Below, piece after piece: positions 1,940 to 48,429 of a DNA stretch of 64,000 nt. The notes beneath the pieces are model-generated. The model made no database searches, had not been told where the DNA came from, and saw nothing but the letters and a program-made list of their open reading frames with translations. Source of the stretch: Lachnospiraceae bacterium (GTDB taxonomy: Bacteria > Bacillota_I > Bacilli_A > RFN20 > CAG-826); the NCBI GenBank assembly GCA_963657245.1, contig CAVKLJ010000003.1, forward strand, positions 65,219 through 129,218, read 5' to 3'. Both the position numbers and the translations under genes were made by a program. How positions within the stretch are numbered: the stretch's first letter is position 1; each line of letters starts with the position of its first letter.

Positions 1940-3085
1940 ATGTCTTACAGATTCATGTTAAACGAGACTTCCTATCATGGACATGGCGCAATTGAAAACA
2001 TCGTCCCTGAAATTGAAGCAAGAGGATTTAAGAAAGCACTTGTCTGCTCCGATCCTGATTTAGTCAAATTCGGAGTTACAGCAAAAGTCACATCGTTATT
2101 AGATAAAGCTGGTGTCGCCTACACTTTATATGACAACATCAAACCAAATCCAACAATTGAAAACGTTACAAGCGGTGTTAAGGCTTGTAAAGAAGCGGGT
2201 GCTGATTTCATCATTGCTATCGGTGGAGGATCTAGCATGGATACCTCTAAGGCAATCGGTATCATCATGACAAACCCAGAATTTGAGGATGTCAGAAGCC
2301 TTGAAGGAGTTGCTCCAACAAAGAAACCATGCTTACCAATCATCGCTGTTTCCACAACCGCTGGCACAGCAGCTGAAGTTACAATCAACTACGTCATCAC
2401 TGATGTTGAAAGAAAGAGAAAATTCGTTTGTGTTGATGCTCACGATATGCCAATCATTGCCGTTGTTGACCCAGATATGATGTCCTCAATGCCAAAAGGC
2501 TTAACTGCCGCTACAGGCATGGATGCCCTTACCCACGCTATCGAAGGCTATATCACTCGTGGCGCTTGGACAATGTCCGATATGTTCCACATCAAAGCCA
2601 TCGAAATTATTGGCAAGAGCCTTAGAGATGCCGTTAAAAACACCCCAGAAGGCCGTGAAGGAATGGCTTTAGGACAATATATCGCCGGTATGGGTTTCTC
2701 CAATGTCGGTTTAGGTATTGACCACGCTATGGCACATACATTATCTGCATATTACGATGTCCCACACGGCGTTGCATGTGCTATGCTTCTTCCAATCGCC
2801 ATGGAATTCAATGCTGATGTCACTGGCACTAAATACAAAGATATTGCCATTGCTTTAGGTGTTAAAGGCGTAGAAGAAATGAGCCAAGAAGAATATCGCG
2901 CTGCAGCAATTAACGCCGTTAAACAACTCTCTGTCGATGTTGGCATCCCAACAAAATGCGAGAAAATCGTTGCAAGTGATTTAGATTCCCTTGCCACAGA
3001 TGCCCTTCATGATGCATGCTACCCAGGCAATCCAAAGGAAGCAACCCACGAAGAAGTCGTCGCTCTCTTTAAGAAATTAATGTAA
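1940..3085 (+). CDS. fucO: Lactaldehyde reductase / 1,2-propanediol oxidoreductase (group III Fe-dependent alcohol dehydrogenase)
   Basis: 381 aa, colinear with E. coli FucO as I recall it. Shared blocks include RFMLNETSYHGHGAI, GGGSSMDTSKAIG, TTAGTAAEVTINYVITD..KRKFVCVD, THAIEGYITRGAW and GNPKEAT. RBS GAGAGGTAAAAGA precedes the ATG. Confidence 0.85.
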   Translation: MSYRFMLNETSYHGHGAIENIVPEIEARGFKKALVCSDPDLVKFGVTAKVTSLLDKAGVAYTLYDNIKPNPTIENVTSGVKACKEAGADFIIAIGGGSSMDTSKAIGIIMTNPEFEDVRSLEGVAPTKKPCLPIIAVSTTAGTAAEVTINYVITDVERKRKFVCVDAHDMPIIAVVDPDMMSSMPKGLTAATGMDALTHAIEGYITRGAWTMSDMFHIKAIEIIGKSLRDAVKNTPEGREGMALGQYIAGMGFSNVGLGIDHAMAHTLSAYYDVPHGVACAMLLPIAMEFNADVTGTKYKDIAIALGVKGVEEMSQEEYRAAAINAVKQLSVDVGIPTKCEKIVASDLDSLATDALHDACYPGNPKEATHEEVVALFKKLM

Positions 3086-41788: not shown

Positions 41789-43300
41789 TTATTTAGGTGA
41801 TTCTTTGCTTTCCATTTCAGCTAAGACCCTTTGTTCAAATTCTTGTTGCTTAGCTAAATGCTTATCAGATAACTCTTTCTTCTTATCGTCCCATTCCTTG
41901 CCATGTAATGGATAGAACCACATAGCAATAAAGGAAAGAACAAGTAAGATGCCCGTAATTAAGAACCAACAGATGAATAAACCATTCTTTGCTTGCATAG
42001 TTTGTGAAGCGTAGTCGATAACTTCAACAACATTGCCAGCATCATTTGTCGTTGTGGTTTTTAAATCTTTGTTGAAGCCAAATAAAGAGGCAATCATCAA
42101 AGGGAAGAGAGCTGTTGCAATTGATCCAGCTGGTTTGGTGATAAGAGAGTTAATACCGGCATAAACGCCTTCTCTTCTTGTTCCGTTATCCGCTTCATCT
42201 TTATCAATAACATCGCCATTGACCATTGGAACAAGATATAAGCCACCGGCTAAGCCAATACCGCAAAGGAAGAAAGTCAGAACACAAACATAGAAATATT
42301 GTCCTAAGAATGCGCCAAGCAAACACCCTGCGCCCATTGCGCCAGTAAGAATTAACATTTCCACACGTAAGCCAAGTTTATTTCTCGTGAAATTAAAGAA
42401 AATAATACCTAAAATGACACCAACAGCCAAAGCGGCGTAAAGAACTGTAATCGAGCTTCCGCCAATCCAGCCATTAGGCGCGCCATCAATTGCCCACATA
42501 CCTGAAGCGTAGGTCAAACCAACCATCAAAGCGTTTTGAGCGAAAATAACCGTCCAGGAAACGACTTCAAATAAAAGGAATGATTTATTCTTCAAACAAA
42601 GTTTTAACCCTTCAAAGAACTTAGGCTGTTCTTCTTCAATAACATAGCCATTTTCTTTGTAGAAGAAAGTTGAAATAAAGACAACCGCTCCACAAACAAG
42701 CCCCATGCCCGCCATAATGAGAGGGAATATTTGCGCATTATGCTCAATCAATTTGTCTAATTGAGAATTCAAGATCATTGGAGCGCCGTAACTAATTAGT
42801 GAGAAAAGGATATTGAAGAGAAATATCTTATTTCTTGCTTTGTTTGTAACCGCCATCTCATAAGGCATAACATAAATCGCCGAAGCAATTGCCGTATAAA
42901 GAAGGTCATAAAGGAACAAGCCAAGAAGTTCTTGAACAAAGAGTAGTCCTTGGTTAACGCCATTGCTTTCAAGGGCTGGTAGCCACATAAGCGCATAGAT
43001 AAGCGCCATAATTGGTGCGCCATATCTTATCCATGGAATTCTACGGCCAAGCTTCGAATGAGTCCTATCTGCCAAGAATCCATAAATCGGATCGTTAATC
43101 GCATTCCAAACGCCAAAGATGATCCATACGATCATATTTAGGGTTTCATTCAATCCTAGTTTGTTAACAAAGAGATATTGGAATGCCGCACCTTCCGCAA
43201 AAGCACACAACAATCCCGTACCAGCATTTGCTGCACCTAGCCAAACCGCACTAGATGTTTTTACTTTTTCCTCTCTGAGAGGTAATCTTTCATCTGCCAT
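41789..43300 (-). CDS. GPH-family (MelB/YicJ-like) MFS glycoside:cation symporter
   Basis: 503 aa with 12 TM segments. The N-terminal motif is LADRTHSKLGRRIPWI, i.e. the GPH D-R-T..GR.RP signature. Confidence 0.7.
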   Translation of the reverse strand: MADERLPLREEKVKTSSAVWLGAANAGTGLLCAFAEGAAFQYLFVNKLGLNETLNMIVWIIFGVWNAINDPIYGFLADRTHSKLGRRIPWIRYGAPIMALIYALMWLPALESNGVNQGLLFVQELLGLFLYDLLYTAIASAIYVMPYEMAVTNKARNKIFLFNILFSLISYGAPMILNSQLDKLIEHNAQIFPLIMAGMGLVCGAVVFISTFFYKENGYVIEEEQPKFFEGLKLCLKNKSFLLFEVVSWTVIFAQNALMVGLTYASGMWAIDGAPNGWIGGSSITVLYAALAVGVILGIIFFNFTRNKLGLRVEMLILTGAMGAGCLLGAFLGQYFYVCVLTFFLCGIGLAGGLYLVPMVNGDVIDKDEADNGTRREGVYAGINSLITKPAGSIATALFPLMIASLFGFNKDLKTTTTNDAGNVVEVIDYASQTMQAKNGLFICWFLITGILLVLSFIAMWFYPLHGKEWDDKKKELSDKHLAKQQEFEQRVLAEMESKESPK

Positions 43301-43303
43301 TTG

Positions 43304-44230
43304 TTATTTCCTTTCAAATGTCTTATTTATAAAACTCATGCATATCTCTTCATATGCCTGAGGATTTACCTGATATGATTCTGCATGATTGGCCCCTTCA
43401 ACTAAATGAATTACGGCATGATCTTTGCAAGCTTCGTATACTTCTTCTCCTTCACATGTAGGAACAAAATTATCCTTTGCTCCATGAATTATGAGAATTG
43501 GCTTATCGCTAACTTTTGCTGAATCTAGAGGAATGACGTCTTCCATTGAAAACTTATAAAAACATTTGAGCATTTGATTTATGCCATGAATAAAAATAGT
43601 TGATATGTGAGCTTGTTTCATTTTATGAAGGAGAACTTTTCTTAATGAAGAATATCCACAGTCCTCAATAGCAAAAGAAACATTTGGATGATATTGCAAG
43701 GATTGGAGAATGCTTGCTGCACCCATTGATTCTCCATGTAAGCCAATAATTGCATCTTCACCAAATCTTTGATGGCAATAATTAACTATGTCAACAACGT
43801 CTCTTCCTTCTTTATATCCCATCGTTGTGAATTTGGTTTTGTTCTCCCCATGTCCCCTTTCATCATATAGGAGAATAGAAAAGCCGTTCTTAAAAAAGAA
43901 TTGGGCGTATTTCAAGGAACCTTCCCTATTCCATGTATATCCATGGGCTATGATCATAATTTTCTCGTTGTCTTTATTTGGGGAGAAATCAGCGCAAATA
44001 AAAGAGCCATCGCTCATTTTAATTGAGATTGGTTCTCTTTTTAAATAAGACATATCCGCAGGAATTAGCCCTTTATCTACATCAACTTTATGAGTAAATT
44101 CCTTCTTAAATCTTTTTGGATGCGTCAAAAAATGAGCCAAGCCAAAAGATAAAGCGAAATATGCGATAAGCAAAAACGCTAAAACAGAAAATAAAATGAT
44201 TAAAGCTATAACCCAAGGTGTCATCTTCAA
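43304..44230 (-). CDS. Membrane-anchored alpha/beta hydrolase
   Basis: 308 aa with an N-terminal TM helix, the nucleophile elbow GESMGA, and HG/GANH motifs. Confidence 0.65.
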   Translation of the reverse strand: MKMTPWVIALIILFSVLAFLLIAYFALSFGLAHFLTHPKRFKKEFTHKVDVDKGLIPADMSYLKREPISIKMSDGSFICADFSPNKDNEKIMIIAHGYTWNREGSLKYAQFFFKNGFSILLYDERGHGENKTKFTTMGYKEGRDVVDIVNYCHQRFGEDAIIGLHGESMGAASILQSLQYHPNVSFAIEDCGYSSLRKVLLHKMKQAHISTIFIHGINQMLKCFYKFSMEDVIPLDSAKVSDKPILIIHGAKDNFVPTCEGEEVYEACKDHAVIHLVEGANHAESYQVNPQAYEEICMSFINKTFERK

Positions 44231-44307
44231 AGGGAATTATATAGCAGTAATATGAAAGTTAAAAATAGTTTTTTAAACGACTTAAATAATTTATATGTAT
44301 TTGAGTT

Positions 44308-44520
44308 TTATTGATTATTCTTGTTATATTCTTCAATAGCCTTCATATATTCGTCGATGGCTTTTTTAATTGTCTCCGATTTGTTATCCTGGCTTTCCAA
44401 AAAACCAGCAATAGCCTTATCTCTATCATTAGATCCAACATTTAATGTTACCTTGATGTTTCTAATGTTTTTTTCGTTCCAACGTCTTTTACGATTTGTT
44501 TCTTTTTTAACGTCTCTCAT
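44308..44520 (-). CDS. Small ribbon-helix-helix (Arc/CopG-like) DNA-binding protein
   Basis: 70 aa from ATG 44520: MRDVKKETNRKRRWNEKNIRNIKVTLNVGS...AIAGFLE...IKKAIDEYM. It follows the basic arm, beta strand, two helices pattern. The track's 84-aa version extends into the upstream RNA hairpin. Confidence 0.55.
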   Translation of the reverse strand: MRDVKKETNRKRRWNEKNIRNIKVTLNVGSNDRDKAIAGFLESQDNKSETIKKAIDEYMKAIEEYNKNNQ

Positions 44521-44670
44521 AATTATTTCCCATGGTGGAGGCTCGGGCCTCCTTGACGCCAACGGATTAAAGAACTAAACTAAGTATGCAATTGATGAGT
44601 TCCAGCAAGAGCGCGAGAAGTGGCGACCACTTCAAGAGCCACGCTAGAACTCTTTTTATTTGCATTTTCG

Positions 44671-44736
44671 CTAAGGTGGTTTTCCCACAAAATCCATTTG
44701 CGTCTCAGAAACCCTTGCCCCCATTGGTGCGATCAT
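44671..44736 (-). CDS. Candidate 21-codon leader sORF (MIAPMGARVSETQMDFVGKPP*)
   Basis: AAAGGAGGG lies 11 nt upstream of the ATG. Length and 13/21 residues are conserved with copy 2, and 4 of the identical residues use different codons. It ends KPP-stop. Confidence 0.5.
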   Translation of the reverse strand: MIAPMGARVSETQMDFVGKPP

Positions 44737-44790
44737 TTGGGTATTGCCCTCCTTTTCGCATCAGCAGCAAGGTTCTCTTGCCACATACAT

Positions 44791-44819
44791 ATTATAAACC
44801 ATACTAGTATTAGTATCAA
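44791..44819 (-). promoter_or_regulatory. Consensus sigma-70 promoter of module 1
   Basis: On the minus strand: TTGATA (44819..44814), N17, TATAAT (44796..44791). Confidence 0.7.
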
Positions 44820-45062
44820 TATCTATTTGATTAAATTTAATTCACCACTAATTTTCTAATCATTTAAAACAATGAGTTGCCCAAACCACGTTAAAGTAAT
44901 CCAAATTTTTAGATTTTAACCATGGTGGAGGCTCGGGCCTCCTTGACACAAACAGGTTAATTAACTAGAATATAAATGCTTTTATGAGTTCTAGCAGTAG
45001 CGCGAGAAGTGGCGACCACTTCAAGAGCCACGCTAGAATCTTTTTTAATCGCATGGCATCAG

Positions 45063-45128
45063 TTATGGCGGTTTAAACCAAAAACCTGTTGTTGTCTCAG
45101 AAGCCTTCGCCCCCATTTTTGCGATCAT
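45063..45128 (-). CDS. Candidate 21-codon leader sORF (MIAKMGAKASETTTGFWFKPP*)
   Basis: Same SD and spacing as the copy 1 sORF. Confidence 0.5.
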   Translation of the reverse strand: MIAKMGAKASETTTGFWFKPP

Positions 45129-45181
45129 TTGGGTATTGCCCTCCTTTTCGCATCAATGGCAGGGTTATTTGCCATGTTTCA

Positions 45182-45210
45182 ATTATAAACCGTACTAGTA
45201 TTAGTATCAA
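45182..45210 (-). promoter_or_regulatory. Consensus sigma-70 promoter of module 2
   Basis: On the minus strand: TTGATA (45210..45205), N17, TATAAT (45187..45182). Confidence 0.7.
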
Positions 45211-45267
45211 GGCTTATTTATGATTTTTTTGCTTAACAACACTGCTATTCAATCAGCTGATTCGACG

Positions 45268-45398
45268 TTAGTTAATTAAAGAACTAAACTAATCATGCGC
45301 CTTATGAGTTCTAGAAGTAACACAAGAGCTGATGACCACTTAAAAATATTGCTAGAACTTTTTATTACGATGCACTTATTGCACAACCTCATTATACA
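45268..45398 (-). repeat. Degenerate third copy; only the central hairpin region is retained
   Basis: 45268..45365 aligns to 44565..44660 of copy 1 (aaagaactaaactaa...gagttc.ag...gctagaact.tttttatt). It lacks the sORF and the terminal hairpin. A TGTATAAT extended -10 lies on the minus strand at 45398..45391. Confidence 0.6.
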
Positions 45399-45426
45399 TT
45401 ATCTATAAGACGCCAGATGCCCTATT

Positions 45427-48400
45427 TTAGAATAATGATAATTGTTCCATTTCATCGATATTTTTATATCCTTCAATTAGCTTTTTCAAAAACTCATAAT
45501 CTTTTGAATAGGAGTTAGGCAAACGAATCAATTGCAGACCTTTTGATTGGCATATTTCCATCTTCTTTTTATCTGATTTTATTCTTTTTGCGTCGGAAAA
45601 GTGTTCTCCACCATCGAATTCGAATGCGTACTTAGCCTTGAAAGCCCCTAACGCTCCACGTTCATATATCACTGAATCAAATTCTTGCAAAGAATTAGCG
45701 TATTCCTCACCGAATACATCTTTTAGAGGAACGTTTCTAACAACCTTTAGTTTTCTTTTTGTAGAGACTATCTGTTTTATGGTTTCGTAAAATTCATCTT
45801 CACTAAGAGAGCCATTGGATTTGCCAATTGCTAGATTTGAATAATTTGGTGGAACGACTTCGCAAGATCCGTTGCTATCACAATAACTTACTAGTTCATT
45901 CCAAACATCATCACCCGTGTCTATTTTCTTTAAGGCTTCTTTGTCAGAAAACACCACTAATTTCTTTTTTGCTCTCGAAACTGCAACATTGGCAATCTCA
46001 CCATGGTTATGAAGCCAACTTAATGCGCCCTTAGAGGAATACTTAGAGATTCCCGTCGATACGATTATCGTTTCTTTTTCATCCCCTTGAACACTATGTA
46101 TTGTTGAAGCCTTTACCCCCGTTACCCCGCTTCTTTCTAGCAATGAGTTAATTAAGTTTGCTTGATTGATAAAGGGTGTGATTATCGCACAATTATCTAA
46201 ATTAGCCTTCTTACAATACTCCACTACATTTGCTGCTTCTTGATAGTTTTGATTCCTTAAAGGAGTCTTCACGTAATTTATTGTCTTATAACACTCAACA
46301 TCACCTGATATTAAGTCTTTTTGCAAACGTAGCTTATTCTGATAGAAATATTTGTTGCTGAAATTAATGATCTTTTTACCACAACGATAATGATCTCTAA
46401 GTAAAACTCTATTACTTACTTTATCCGCTTCTTTCATCGTGGAAAGAATTGAATTTGTAAGGTAGTCATATCCATCTGAAATTTCAAATTTCTCCTTTAA
46501 ATCCTCATTCGTTTTATCATCTATGTTAACAACTGGCGTTAATTGGTCTTCATCTCCAACTAATAACAACGCCTTGCCACGAGATAAAGGCAATAAGGAA
46601 TGAGCAATATCTGCTTGGCCCGCTTCATCCATGATAATTAGATCAAAAAGAAAATCTCCACTGCCTAATCTTGCTGAAGAAATATTAGTCGTAAAAATGA
46701 TTGGAAAAACATTTGTAAGCAGTTCCATGTTTTTATCTTCGCTTATAAACGAATTGAATCTCATTCTTCTTTTTGCTTCATCGGAACAATTAATAATGTC
46801 TAATAGTTCTTCATATCTATGAGTTCTTAATCTCTTAAGCCTATTCAAAGACGAGTAATAAAGATATTTCATCGCATCTTCATCGTTTTTTAGTGAAACA
46901 AAAGAAGAAATTAATTCATCCTCGCTTATGTCTGGTAAGGCGTTTAATTCTTCTTCAAGTTTTTCTCTTTGTCTTTTAACGATGCTTGTTTTTGCGCCAA
47001 AAGAAGAAACCCTATCGAGGAAAGAAAGATTTTCTATCACTGTTTTTCTTCTTTGGAAGTTGGTTAAAGAAAGAACTGCCTCTTTGTTACTTGCAAGAAG
47101 CTTTGTTTTTAGCTTATCAAGCTCAGTATTGGATATAGCATCATCAAGATCGATATCTAACATTTCTTTCATTCTTAAAAGGCTCTCTTGAACCTTTGCG
47201 GAATTCCCTAAACGTAAATATGGGAAATCAATTTTCTTCCCTTGGTATTTGAAATCTATTTTGCTAATTATGCCTTCTAAGGGGCGATTGTTGTTTGTTG
47301 ATACCAAAACGCTTTTATCAGCAAAGTAGGCAGATAAAATCGTATTGAATATCGTTTGAGTTTTCCCTGTTCCTGGTGGACCTTGAACATAGGTTATTTT
47401 GTTCTTCAAAGAGTTATAGATTAATAAAGCTTGATCAGAATTAACTCGATCGTCAAAAAGAACTATTCCAGGTAAAGATCTTCCATTATTTGAAAGGCTA
47501 GAGTTGCCAAAGAACGCTTTAAGAGGAACATTTAGTTCTCCTTTTGCCCACTTATCTTCTATCTTATCAAAAAGAGGATTTAGATTTATCTGAACATCTC
47601 TTTGTAGGCAAAAGAAATCCGGACGGGTATTTATCTTTTCTCGGTAATATAAGTTCTCTCTTATTATCTCCACGGCATTATCAAAATCGGTCTTCAAAAG
47701 GCCTTTGAATTCAATCGCACTTAGTTCAGTATAAGCAGACAAAGAATGTTTTTTACCATCGATAAGAAAGGTTGGATTAACCTTGACTTCACCGATGATT
47801 TTCATTTTTCTATCTTCTGGGGAAAAACAAACCTTTTGATACGCGACAATGTATTTCTTATCTCCATCATCAATAGATAGTCTTGATATCGCCAGTTCAG
47901 ATTGTTTCTTTTCCCATTCCTCTAAATCTAGTTTTACGACCTTTCGAACTAGAGAATGAATTTGTGAATCGGATAAAAGGTATTCACCATTTTCTTTAAG
48001 CGATTCTACATCAATACCTTCAACCATTGAGTAATTAGAGGTAAACGGGTCTGAATCCGCATTCGAGCAGCATTCAAGATAACGAAGAATATTGTTGCTA
48101 AAGTTTTCATACTTGAGCCAACTATATTCTTCAATATTTGAGTTGATCTTTTTGTTCAACTCTTCGTTATATCTGCCAGTTGTAAAATTAATGACTTTTG
48201 CTTCTTTGATCTTGTTAAATGAAAGATTGCATTCGATAACATCAATTCCCTTAAAATCATTAAAAGCAAGTGCCCTTAAAATTTGTTTCTTTGGATTGAT
48301 ATCTTTGATGAAACACCAAAATGATGTATCTCTTTTTTCTTTAGATGAATCATAGACAACAGAAAGCCATTTGCCTTCTTTTATCGAAAGAGATATTTCT

Positions 48401-48429
48401 TTAGCAATGGTGTTTTGATTCATATCCAA
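45427..48429 (-). CDS. SF1 (Upf1/DNA2-like, AAA_11/AAA_12) helicase with C-terminal DUF559/Vsr-like endonuclease-fold domain
   Basis: 1000 aa. Helicase motifs are GPPGTGKT, IIMDEAGQA, VGDEDQL, TIHSVQGDEKETIIVS and NVAVSRAKKKLVVF. The C-terminus has YAFEFDGGEHF...D..K...C...GLQLIRLP. The N-terminal ~330 aa is unassigned (possibly WYL/SH3-like at residues 10-60, weak). Confidence 0.75.
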   Translation of the reverse strand: MDMNQNTIAKEISLSIKEGKWLSVVYDSSKEKRDTSFWCFIKDINPKKQILRALAFNDFKGIDVIECNLSFNKIKEAKVINFTTGRYNEELNKKINSNIEEYSWLKYENFSNNILRYLECCSNADSDPFTSNYSMVEGIDVESLKENGEYLLSDSQIHSLVRKVVKLDLEEWEKKQSELAISRLSIDDGDKKYIVAYQKVCFSPEDRKMKIIGEVKVNPTFLIDGKKHSLSAYTELSAIEFKGLLKTDFDNAVEIIRENLYYREKINTRPDFFCLQRDVQINLNPLFDKIEDKWAKGELNVPLKAFFGNSSLSNNGRSLPGIVLFDDRVNSDQALLIYNSLKNKITYVQGPPGTGKTQTIFNTILSAYFADKSVLVSTNNNRPLEGIISKIDFKYQGKKIDFPYLRLGNSAKVQESLLRMKEMLDIDLDDAISNTELDKLKTKLLASNKEAVLSLTNFQRRKTVIENLSFLDRVSSFGAKTSIVKRQREKLEEELNALPDISEDELISSFVSLKNDEDAMKYLYYSSLNRLKRLRTHRYEELLDIINCSDEAKRRMRFNSFISEDKNMELLTNVFPIIFTTNISSARLGSGDFLFDLIIMDEAGQADIAHSLLPLSRGKALLLVGDEDQLTPVVNIDDKTNEDLKEKFEISDGYDYLTNSILSTMKEADKVSNRVLLRDHYRCGKKIINFSNKYFYQNKLRLQKDLISGDVECYKTINYVKTPLRNQNYQEAANVVEYCKKANLDNCAIITPFINQANLINSLLERSGVTGVKASTIHSVQGDEKETIIVSTGISKYSSKGALSWLHNHGEIANVAVSRAKKKLVVFSDKEALKKIDTGDDVWNELVSYCDSNGSCEVVPPNYSNLAIGKSNGSLSEDEFYETIKQIVSTKRKLKVVRNVPLKDVFGEEYANSLQEFDSVIYERGALGAFKAKYAFEFDGGEHFSDAKRIKSDKKKMEICQSKGLQLIRLPNSYSKDYEFLKKLIEGYKNIDEMEQLSLF

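Follow-up and report, generated by a model that had tools for sequence, protein, structure and literature searches.

A probable type I toxin-antitoxin-like module with a Lys-Pro-Pro-stop leader reading frame, present in tandem in a bacterial genome

The minus strand of the window (the whole stretch of DNA that was analysed, 64,000 nucleotides (nt) of contig CAVKLJ010000003.1, assembly GCA_963657245.1, Lachnospiraceae bacterium) carries two copies of one unit, each of ∼ 291 nt, at positions 44529-44819 (module 1) and 44920-45210 (module 2). Each comprises a promoter, a strong Shine-Dalgarno site (SD) and a 21-codon open reading frame (ORF) that begins Met-Ile-Ala (MIA) and ends Lys-Pro-Pro-stop (KPP-stop), all within a very stable predicted RNA fold. 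Taken with a second, hydrophobic ORF and a convergent antisense unit, both of which were overlooked in an earlier note on this DNA, these features suggest that each repeat is probably self-contained, a module resembling type I toxin-antitoxin systems whose KPP-terminated leader ORF does not overlap the hydrophobic one, and that it would represent a new family.

The earlier note had described the two minus-strand copies, and most of its layout is borne out. The copy blocks lie 389-392 nt apart, are 78-88% identical and contain perfect shared stretches of 28-40 nt. Both copies have the AAAGGAGGG block with an ATG 11 nt downstream, and the two 21-codon ORFs share 13 identical residues, with differing codons at Ala7, Thr12, Pro20 and Pro21. 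The TTGATA-17-TATAAT promoters are also present, although to call them perfect was slightly generous, since they score 11/12 to consensus. The view that tandem duplication of a promoter-plus-RNA unit is unusual did not hold. Duplication of this kind has been used to search for type I toxin-antitoxin loci, and within one intergenic region it is a recognised trait of the ibs/sib, ldr/rdl and zor/orz systems (PMC2887945), so that the duplication in the window is not anomalous.

Comparison was made over four intact copies, namely the two window modules and two tandem modules (A and B) on a contig of assembly GCA_963655775.1, here called L003. This contig represents a second species, in which the neighbouring helicase is 82% and the small protein encoded behind the modules 75% identical to that of the window.

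The leader and the hydrophobic reading frame

The leader start, the 21-codon length, the MIA opening, F16 and the KPP-stop are conserved in all four copies, so that both the frame and the ending, whose preservation in homologues the earlier note had wished to see checked, are kept in the two species. Variation in AAACCNCCNTAR is confined to three wobble positions, and the ratio of nonsynonymous to synonymous change (pN/pS) is 0.55 in frame versus 0.91 and 0.94 in the other frames. Across the twelve middle codons, changes fall equally at all codon positions (10, 10, 10), which argues that RNA, not peptide, is the level at which these codons are constrained. Moreover, the Pro20 wobble base covaries with its pairing partner (U-A, U-G, C-G, A-U) while the codon stays Pro, which shows that coding and pairing constraints act on one base. 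The leader is probably translated, and we conclude that the act of translation and the C-terminal KPP-stop are under selection, not the whole leader peptide. Stop codons preceded by Pro are decoded slowly (PMC3082878).

In all four copies a further ATG lies 5-18 nt past the KPP stop; no SD is found 5′ of it, and the leader has its invariant AAAGGAGGG. The predicted product is a hydrophobic peptide of 29-32 amino acids that opens M(R/Q)IK(K/R)VLAWLLKWSPLLALLLELIKAF..., and the L003 versions are MVRIKRILAWLLKWSPLLALLLEILKAFIL and MRIKKVLAWLLKWSPLLALLLELIKAFLL. Over all six pairwise comparisons together, pN/pS comes to 0.38 in this frame versus 1.23 and 6.35 in the other two. Replacements are conservative (I/L, K/R, V/I) and Leu codons vary synonymously. 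The grand average of hydropathy (GRAVY) of the peptides is 1.26-1.49, their charge is +2 to +4 and their hydrophobic moment is low (0.24-0.36). Twelve of 15 residues are drawn from IVLFCMA, against a threshold of 10 in the membrane criterion for type I toxins (PMC2887945). In hydrophobicity the peptide resembles TisB, DinQ and ZorO and is unlike delta-lysin.

Whether the two small ORFs are genes at all has to be weighed against the possibility that the module is only a structured RNA without coding function, or two RNAs in sense and antisense, to whose conserved sequence and helix geometry both ORFs would be incidental. The very stable, covarying fold described below would suit this account, as would a 32-nt core of the second ORF without any synonymous change and the unbiased middle codons of the leader. 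Set against these are the start, stop and length of both ORFs, kept in 4/4 copies, and the in-frame bias of the second ORF, where changes outside the invariant core are synonymous or conservative. The wobble-only variation of AAACCNCCNTAR and the invariant 9-nt SD 11 nt 5′ of the leader AUG also argue for translation. Nor was a known RNA family found, in agreement with the earlier note: in a search of Rfam no family reached its gathering score anywhere in the 64 kb, and at E up to 1 the interval 43000-47000 yielded no relevant match. A wholly non-coding element is very improbable.

A different question is what the hydrophobic peptide does. It could be membrane-active without being an addiction or stasis toxin, for example as a regulator of the nearby major facilitator superfamily (MFS) transporter or as a leaderless cytolysin or bacteriocin-like peptide, with antisense and leader control retained. 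Its cationic, Trp/Leu-rich character and its length are compatible with such a role, its charges are N-terminal and not in a C-terminal tail, and it shares an insertion/deletion segment with genes for an S33 hydrolase and the MFS_2 transporter. However, the low hydrophobic moment and the transmembrane-level hydrophobicity place it with TisB, DinQ and ZorO and not with delta-lysin. In addition, the lack of an SD, a sequestered start and a predicted dedicated antisense RNA are traits of tightly silenced toxins and not of abundant secreted peptides, and no export or immunity genes were recognised. We regard a non-toxin peptide as unlikely, while giving it some weight.

A predicted convergent antisense unit within a covarying RNA fold

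A convergent plus-strand promoter, TTGACn-17-TAnAnT, occupies the same aligned position in 4/4 modules. The invariant sense block GUCAAGG is the -35 hexamer TTGACn on the opposite strand. The -10 box reads TAAACT, TAGAAT, TACAAT or TATAAT, such that T1, A2, A4 and T6 are kept in every copy amid a diverged block. At 68-70 nt past the inferred antisense start, all four copies have a stem-loop followed by T5-6, the form of an intrinsic terminator. Together, promoter and terminator predict a cis-antisense RNA of ∼ 70 nt over the hydrophobic ORF, to which it would be a perfect complement across codons ∼ 4-26. This RNA is probably non-coding, because the ORF that it contains in the window copies is missing in L003; the frame in question (MSSS...), considered as a candidate gene, was rejected because its ATG is lacking from the L003 copies. 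The 5′ hairpin of the modules was likewise rejected as an antisense terminator, as a T-run follows it in module 2 only.

The predicted fold of copy 1 has an energy of -107.3 kcal/mol (z -7.35 versus shuffled sequences) and that of copy 2 -91.0 kcal/mol (z -5.28). In the four-sequence consensus 95.5% of cells are paired, compared with 40-45% when the partners are slid, and eight pairs are compensatory, with both sides changed, versus 1-4 with slid partners. A long-range helix between the leader body and the 3′ untranslated region (UTR) accounts for five of the eight; there the earlier note had seen pairing maintained by compensatory change, and had seen it correctly. Coming from four related sequences, the covariation is suggestive, not conclusive. 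The consensus comprises a 5′ hairpin, an SD/AUG hairpin, the leader-body/3′-UTR helix, a small hairpin spanning codons 17-20 of the leader, a 4-bp helix between AUGC of the second ORF and a GCAU further downstream, and an invariant apical stem-loop. The 5′ hairpin is present in 4/4 copies with unrelated stems, which in the copies other than module 1 are UGGCA/UGCCA, GGAG/CUCC and GACGG/CCGUC. The SD/AUG hairpin is the same in both window copies and has two differing positions in L003; within it the last three bases of GGAGGG are predicted to be paired and the first three free, which would leave half of the leader SD accessible. The AUG of the second ORF is predicted to be paired (P 0.76-1.0) in 3/4 copies.

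As the leader body forms one strand of the covarying helix, leader translation must open that helix. The terminal GGAGGC/GCCUCC hairpin on which the earlier note had ended its fold does not form in the minimum-energy structure, where GCCUCC pairs long-range with GGGGGC of leader codons 5-7 and GGAGG pairs with UUUCU; it forms only once the leader ORF is constrained to stay unpaired.

The ORFs, promoters, terminator, fold and covariation, as read from the sequence and from its comparison between copies, are the material from which we infer transcription of the module, toxicity of the peptide, coupling of the two ORFs, a role for the KPP ending and a repressor role for the small downstream protein. 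In this scheme the sense promoter would direct an mRNA of at least 255 nt, probably stabilised by its 5′ hairpin, with the strong-SD leader followed by the SD-less putative toxin, hydrophobic and N-terminally basic. At rest the leader body would be paired to the 3′ UTR, a lock like the tac/fbi pairing of hok or that of aapA, and the toxin AUG would be paired at the base of the apical domain. Translation of the leader would then unzip the lock and bring a terminating ribosome beside the toxin AUG, permitting termination-reinitiation coupling that works like mok, and slow termination at Pro-Pro-stop would set how long the region stays open or occupied. The convergent promoter in the 3′ UTR would give rise to the ∼ 70-nt antisense RNA, which may block toxin translation, trigger duplex cleavage, or both, and whose terminator hairpin would mirror the apical hairpin of the mRNA. 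Finally, the gene behind the last module encodes a small basic protein that may act on a palindrome in the spacers of the module promoters and so repress them. Leader-dependent toxin translation and 5′-3′ locks have precedents in hok/mok, in the proposed ldrX (PMC4147584) and in aapA (PMC6733600).

It is conceivable, if rather doubtful, that the KPP-stop leader is in addition a true sensor. The dwell time at Pro-Pro-stop, reflecting release-factor, EF-P or translation status, would then decide both lock opening and reinitiation on the SD-less toxin ORF, and the module would combine an arrest-peptide switch, a type I pair and, as a third, transcriptional layer, a small DNA-binding protein transcribed together with them. 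We know of no type I system for which such three-layer operation has been described.

The earlier note had proposed an attenuator of the erm/cat type, in which stalling at KPP-stop opens the long-range helix and so controls the small gene downstream. As in erm/cat, a short SD-bearing leader ORF lies within alternative helices, so that ribosome position would decide which helix forms. The strong-SD leader with its KPP-stop is conserved and supplies, through its body, one side of the covarying helix. With the leader kept open, the GGAGGC/GCCUCC hairpin is predicted to form in the 3′ segment, and a small gene without its own promoter or good SD follows module 1 and L003 B. This much of the proposal stands. 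What does not fit is the small gene as its output. The 3′ GGAGG lies 29 nt upstream of the small-gene ATG and the hairpin has no U-tract, so that it neither sequesters an SD nor forms a terminator for that gene, and the distance and frame from CCAUGG to the ATG vary between the species. Module 2 and L003 A, which have no gene behind them, are conserved as well as the modules that do, which argues that the module is self-contained. Unlike erm/cat leaders, moreover, the module has no resistance gene and no downstream SD/AUG sequestered by the switch, and the hydrophobic ORF, the antisense promoter and its terminator would be left unexplained. Such an attenuator is improbable.

Several points count against a type I toxin-antitoxin-like module. 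Its toxicity, expression and antisense RNA are predictions, and the intact copies compared number only four and come from two closely related species, such that the statistics are weak. The excess of changes at third codon positions is not significant (Fisher; leader p 0.29, toxin ORF p 0.12). Promoter-like matches in the region number 7 versus a shuffled expectation of 4.9 and are not in excess, so that the case rests on positional conservation. Covariation counts among related sequences may exceed controls without structure, and the toxin AUG of L003 A is predicted to be weakly paired. The invariance of the 32-nt core suits an RNA or antisense constraint as well as a coding one. The peptides have hydrophobic C-termini (…LIKAFIF, …SLVL) with their charges at the N-terminus. 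A charged or bulky tail at the C-terminus, a trait given by Fozo et al. for many, although not all, type I toxins (PMC2887945), is lacking. Lastly, the peptide matches no known toxin family (Pfam and NCBIfam at E up to 10; 1.84 billion representative proteins), and no profile of the known Bacillota type I families (Fst/RNAII, TxpA/RatA, BsrG/SR4, SprA1 and others) matches the peptide or the RNA.

Table 1. Features of the tandem modules in the window. Promoters, RNAs and pairings are predictions.
Feature	Position	Strand	Remarks
Module 1 sense promoter, TTGATA-17-TATAAT	44791..44819	-	11/12 to consensus; aligns with promoters of the other three modules
Module 1 palindrome ATACTAATACTAGTAT in promoter spacer, candidate operator	44801..44816	.	
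Module 1 sense (toxin-like) mRNA core, predicted start site to CCACCAUGG	44530..44784	-	-106 to -107 kcal/mol; start site placed by inference ∼ 7 nt past the -10 box
Module 1 5′ hairpin (P1)	44764..44784	-	GCAAG/CUUGC core
Module 1 invariant SD/AUG hairpin (P2)	44728..44760	-	UGCGA-AAAGGAGGGCAAUACCCAAAUGA-UCGCA
Module 1 leader ORF, MIAPMGARVSETQMDFVGKPP-stop	44671..44736	-	21 codons, MIA start, KPP-stop
Module 1 long-range helix, 5′ strand, within leader ORF	44691..44722	-	helices 4-6; five compensatory pairs
Module 1 long-range helix, 3′ strand	44530..44568	-	includes GUCAAGGAGGCCCGAGCCUCCACCAUGG
Module 1 second ORF (toxin-like peptide), MQIKRVLAWLLKWSPLLALLLELINCILSLVL-stop	44567..44665	-	GRAVY 1.49; 12/15 hydrophobic; AUG predicted paired, P 0.89-1.0
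Module 1 central stem-loop	44599..44650	.	mRNA apical domain; on the + strand, antisense terminator hairpin; helix 9, 19 pairs, 100% paired
Module 1 antisense promoter, TTGACG-17-TAAACT	44553..44581	+	
Module 1 antisense RNA, ∼ 70 nt (candidate antitoxin)	44588..44657	+	ends in stem-loop plus TCTTTTT
Module 2 sense promoter, TTGATA-17-TATAAT	45182..45210	-	palindrome as in module 1 at 45192-45207
Module 2 sense mRNA core	44920..45175	-	-91 kcal/mol, z -5.28
Module 2 leader ORF, MIAKMGAKASETTTGFWFKPP-stop	45063..45128	-	
Module 2 second ORF, MRLKKILAWLLKWSPLLALLLELIKAFIF-stop	44965..45054	-	
Module 2 antisense promoter, TTGACA-17-TAGAAT	44943..44971	+	11/12
Module 2 antisense RNA, 69 nt	44978..45046	+	ends in stem-loop plus TCTTTTTT
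Decayed third module	45274..45398	-	without SD block or leader ORF; hydrophobic ORF degenerate
Gene for 70-residue basic protein, directly behind module 1	44308..44520	-	no own promoter or clear SD

The downstream gene, relatives and surrounding segment

The small gene that the earlier note placed against copy 1 exists, but the ribbon-helix-helix fold assigned to it found no support from protein families or structures. The 70-residue protein has no match in Pfam, NCBIfam or PADLOC, its PHROG matches are non-significant (the best, at E 0.0015, being to a family without assigned function), and phmmer against the PDB found nothing. An hhalign comparison with CopG gave a probability of 1.2%, and two AlphaFold2 runs returned one long helix at a predicted template-modelling score of 0.34-0.38, which is uninformative. 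A strand-helix-helix residue pattern in the protein is only suggestive. No intrinsic terminator is found 3′ of the module 1 mRNA core, and as the sense RNAs lack one, transcription of the last module probably runs into this gene.

A palindrome, TACTAnnACTAGTA, is found in the spacers of all four sense promoters. Exact matches to motif ACTANNACTAGTA in the window and L003 are confined to the four module promoters; with one mismatch allowed the motif occurs 5 times in the window versus 0.76 expected and 4 times in L003 versus 0.15 expected. The spacer palindrome is a plausible operator for the 70-residue protein, and it is possible that this protein acts as a repressor of the module promoters. 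Separately, the intergenic region between the small gene and the adjacent hydrolase gene (44231-44307, minus strand; L003 3244-3332) contains a cross-species block, TTAAGTCG(G)TT(T)AAAAAACTATTTTTAACT. In the window a TATAAT box lies between this block and the hydrolase start, the L003 sequence having been compared up to the block end. The block is possibly the promoter and operator of the hydrolase gene.

The decayed third copy reported in the earlier note is genuine, with an nhmmer match at 45274-45363 (E 3.5e-8). Its plus strand (45297-45363) retains a promoter-like site, TCGACG-17-TAAACT, together with the basal stem and a T-run, and may encode an orphan antisense RNA. The predicted duplex with module 1 or 2 mRNA is -55 kcal/mol, compared with approximately -135 to -142 kcal/mol for the cognate pairs. 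At the end of module 2 (44920-44931), the 12 nt that follow it (CCATGGTTAAAA) are identical to those that open the region of the small-protein gene in L003 (CCATGGTTAAAAAGCATATG, 3020-3031), which suggests that the ancestral duplicated unit took in the 5′ end of the small-protein gene. The inter-module spacer of L003 (2655-2680) contains an inverted repeat, GTGACGTTTTTTTCAAATGTCAC, that has no counterpart in the window spacer.

Only three homologues of the 70-residue protein were found among 5.8 billion proteins, and the gene order on their contigs is conserved. Three Logan contigs of the locus, from independent assemblies, break exactly within invariant module blocks (L001 1-20; L002 1-20; L012 4260-4298), which is consistent with repeat-induced breaks and with a systematic loss of tandem copies from short-read assemblies. 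Searches for the module itself gave little beyond L003. No match to the region was found by blastn in phage and plasmid collections, and the pattern TTCTAGC..AAGTGGTC..GAACTCAT, exact or degenerate, was absent from genome and viral contig collections. The 20-mer CTTGAAGTGGTCGCCACTTC was found in genome contigs on L003 and once in a Saccharibacteria contig (L005), a match inside a coding region that was rejected as chance; no copy was found among viral contigs. A back-translated AWLLKWSPLLA pattern had zero matches in metagenome and viral contig collections, and the SD-block pattern had none in metagenome contigs. With the 76-residue extended toxin frame as query, the sole protein match was itself, and a peptide profile run against 1.84 billion representative proteins recovered only the query's own ORF and a repetitive junk protein. 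An nhmmer profile of the four modules found none in six loci fetched via helicase homologues (L006-L011). So far, the element is restricted to a narrow clade of bacteria low in guanine + cytosine (GC).

The GC content of this clade is 35-37%, and named relatives of its helicase (41-45% identity) are labelled 'Tenericutes', Bacilli and Clostridia. The record from which L003 and L004 derive (CAVKFY010000087.1) bears the title Alistipes communis. With its 35% GC, strong SDs in the style of Bacillota and the gene order of Bacilli/'Tenericutes'-like genomes, the contig is probably mis-binned.

The helicase gene lies at 45427-48429 on the minus strand and encodes a 1000-residue superfamily 1 protein (AAA_11/AAA_12) with a C-terminal DUF2726 nuclease-like domain. 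It matches the Mokosh MkoA and MkoC defence profiles (E 1e-44), yet homologues of 40-64% identity occur in many Bacilli and Clostridia in varied contexts, and it looks like a lineage-wide chromosomal gene. Since the helicase loci L006-L011 are without modules, the helicase is best regarded as a conserved gene of the adjoining chromosome and not as a module partner.

In the window (41789-45400) and in L003, the modules, the 70-residue protein gene, an S33-type alpha/beta hydrolase gene and an MFS_2 transporter gene stand between the helicase and a MazG-like gene. In a related species (L006, helicase 75% identical), the MazG-like gene follows directly after the helicase, 25 nt past its stop (L006 3820-3880). 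The absence of the intervening genes there indicates that the ∼ 4-kb block from the modules to MFS_2 is an insertion/deletion segment. Toxin-antitoxin loci are frequent residents of accessory segments, and the position of the modules inside a segment that is missing from a related species favours their identification as a type I-like system.

Comparison with known systems and implications

The closest parallels are with hok/sok and mok of plasmid R1 and its chromosomal relatives. As is proposed for the module, the highly folded mRNA there codes for a small membrane toxin, 5′-3′ long-range pairing renders the full-length mRNA inert, toxin translation needs an upstream leader ORF with a functional ribosome-binding site, and the antitoxin is a short cis-antisense RNA (PMC4147584, PMC6733600). 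The differences are nevertheless considerable. The module peptide has no homology to Hok (Pfam/NCBIfam, E up to 10) and the RNA no Rfam match to hok/sok. Where mok and hok overlap, the leader here leaves 5-18 nt between its conserved Lys-Pro-Pro-stop and the AUG of the putative toxin. The predicted antisense RNA covers the toxin ORF itself and not the initiation region of the leader, and the host is low-GC and Bacillota-like, not a proteobacterium.

The ibs/sib, ldr/rdl and zorO/orzO systems of E. coli share with the modules, as these are interpreted here, the tandem arrangement of whole promoter-toxin-antisense units in one intergenic region and hydrophobic toxins of 19-35 amino acids, and the Sib RNAs lie directly opposite the whole ibs ORF (PMC2887945). 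In addition, ldrD has a proposed leader ORF, ldrX (PMC4147584). These systems have no sequence or Rfam similarity to the module, in which, unlike them, the toxin ORF lacks its own SD and the long-range helix uses leader coding sequence. In aapA/IsoA of Helicobacter pylori, a toxin of ∼ 30 amino acids is encoded on a primary transcript locked by a 5′-3′ long-distance interaction, successive alternative hairpins form, and a cis-antisense RNA makes a long duplex (PMC6733600). However, aapA has its own SD, sequestered by a 3′ anti-SD, and is not preceded by a leader ORF; the part of the mRNA overlapped by IsoA is the 5′ one, and there is no sequence similarity to the module.

If this interpretation is correct, the modules would add to the type I toxin-antitoxin systems a new family, from an uncultured Bacilli/'Tenericutes'-like lineage of low GC; to our knowledge, no type I system has been described there. 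They would also provide a second, independent case of leader-ORF-dependent toxin translation beside hok/mok, with another geometry: a non-overlapping leader, an SD-less toxin ORF and a Pro-Pro-stop. More generally, an element that passes for a covarying structured RNA plus leader peptide can conceal a small protein gene and an antisense RNA, both of which annotation pipelines and Rfam-style searches miss. Finally, the loss-or-gain pattern of the ∼ 4-kb segment would make a segment-stabilising role for the modules testable.

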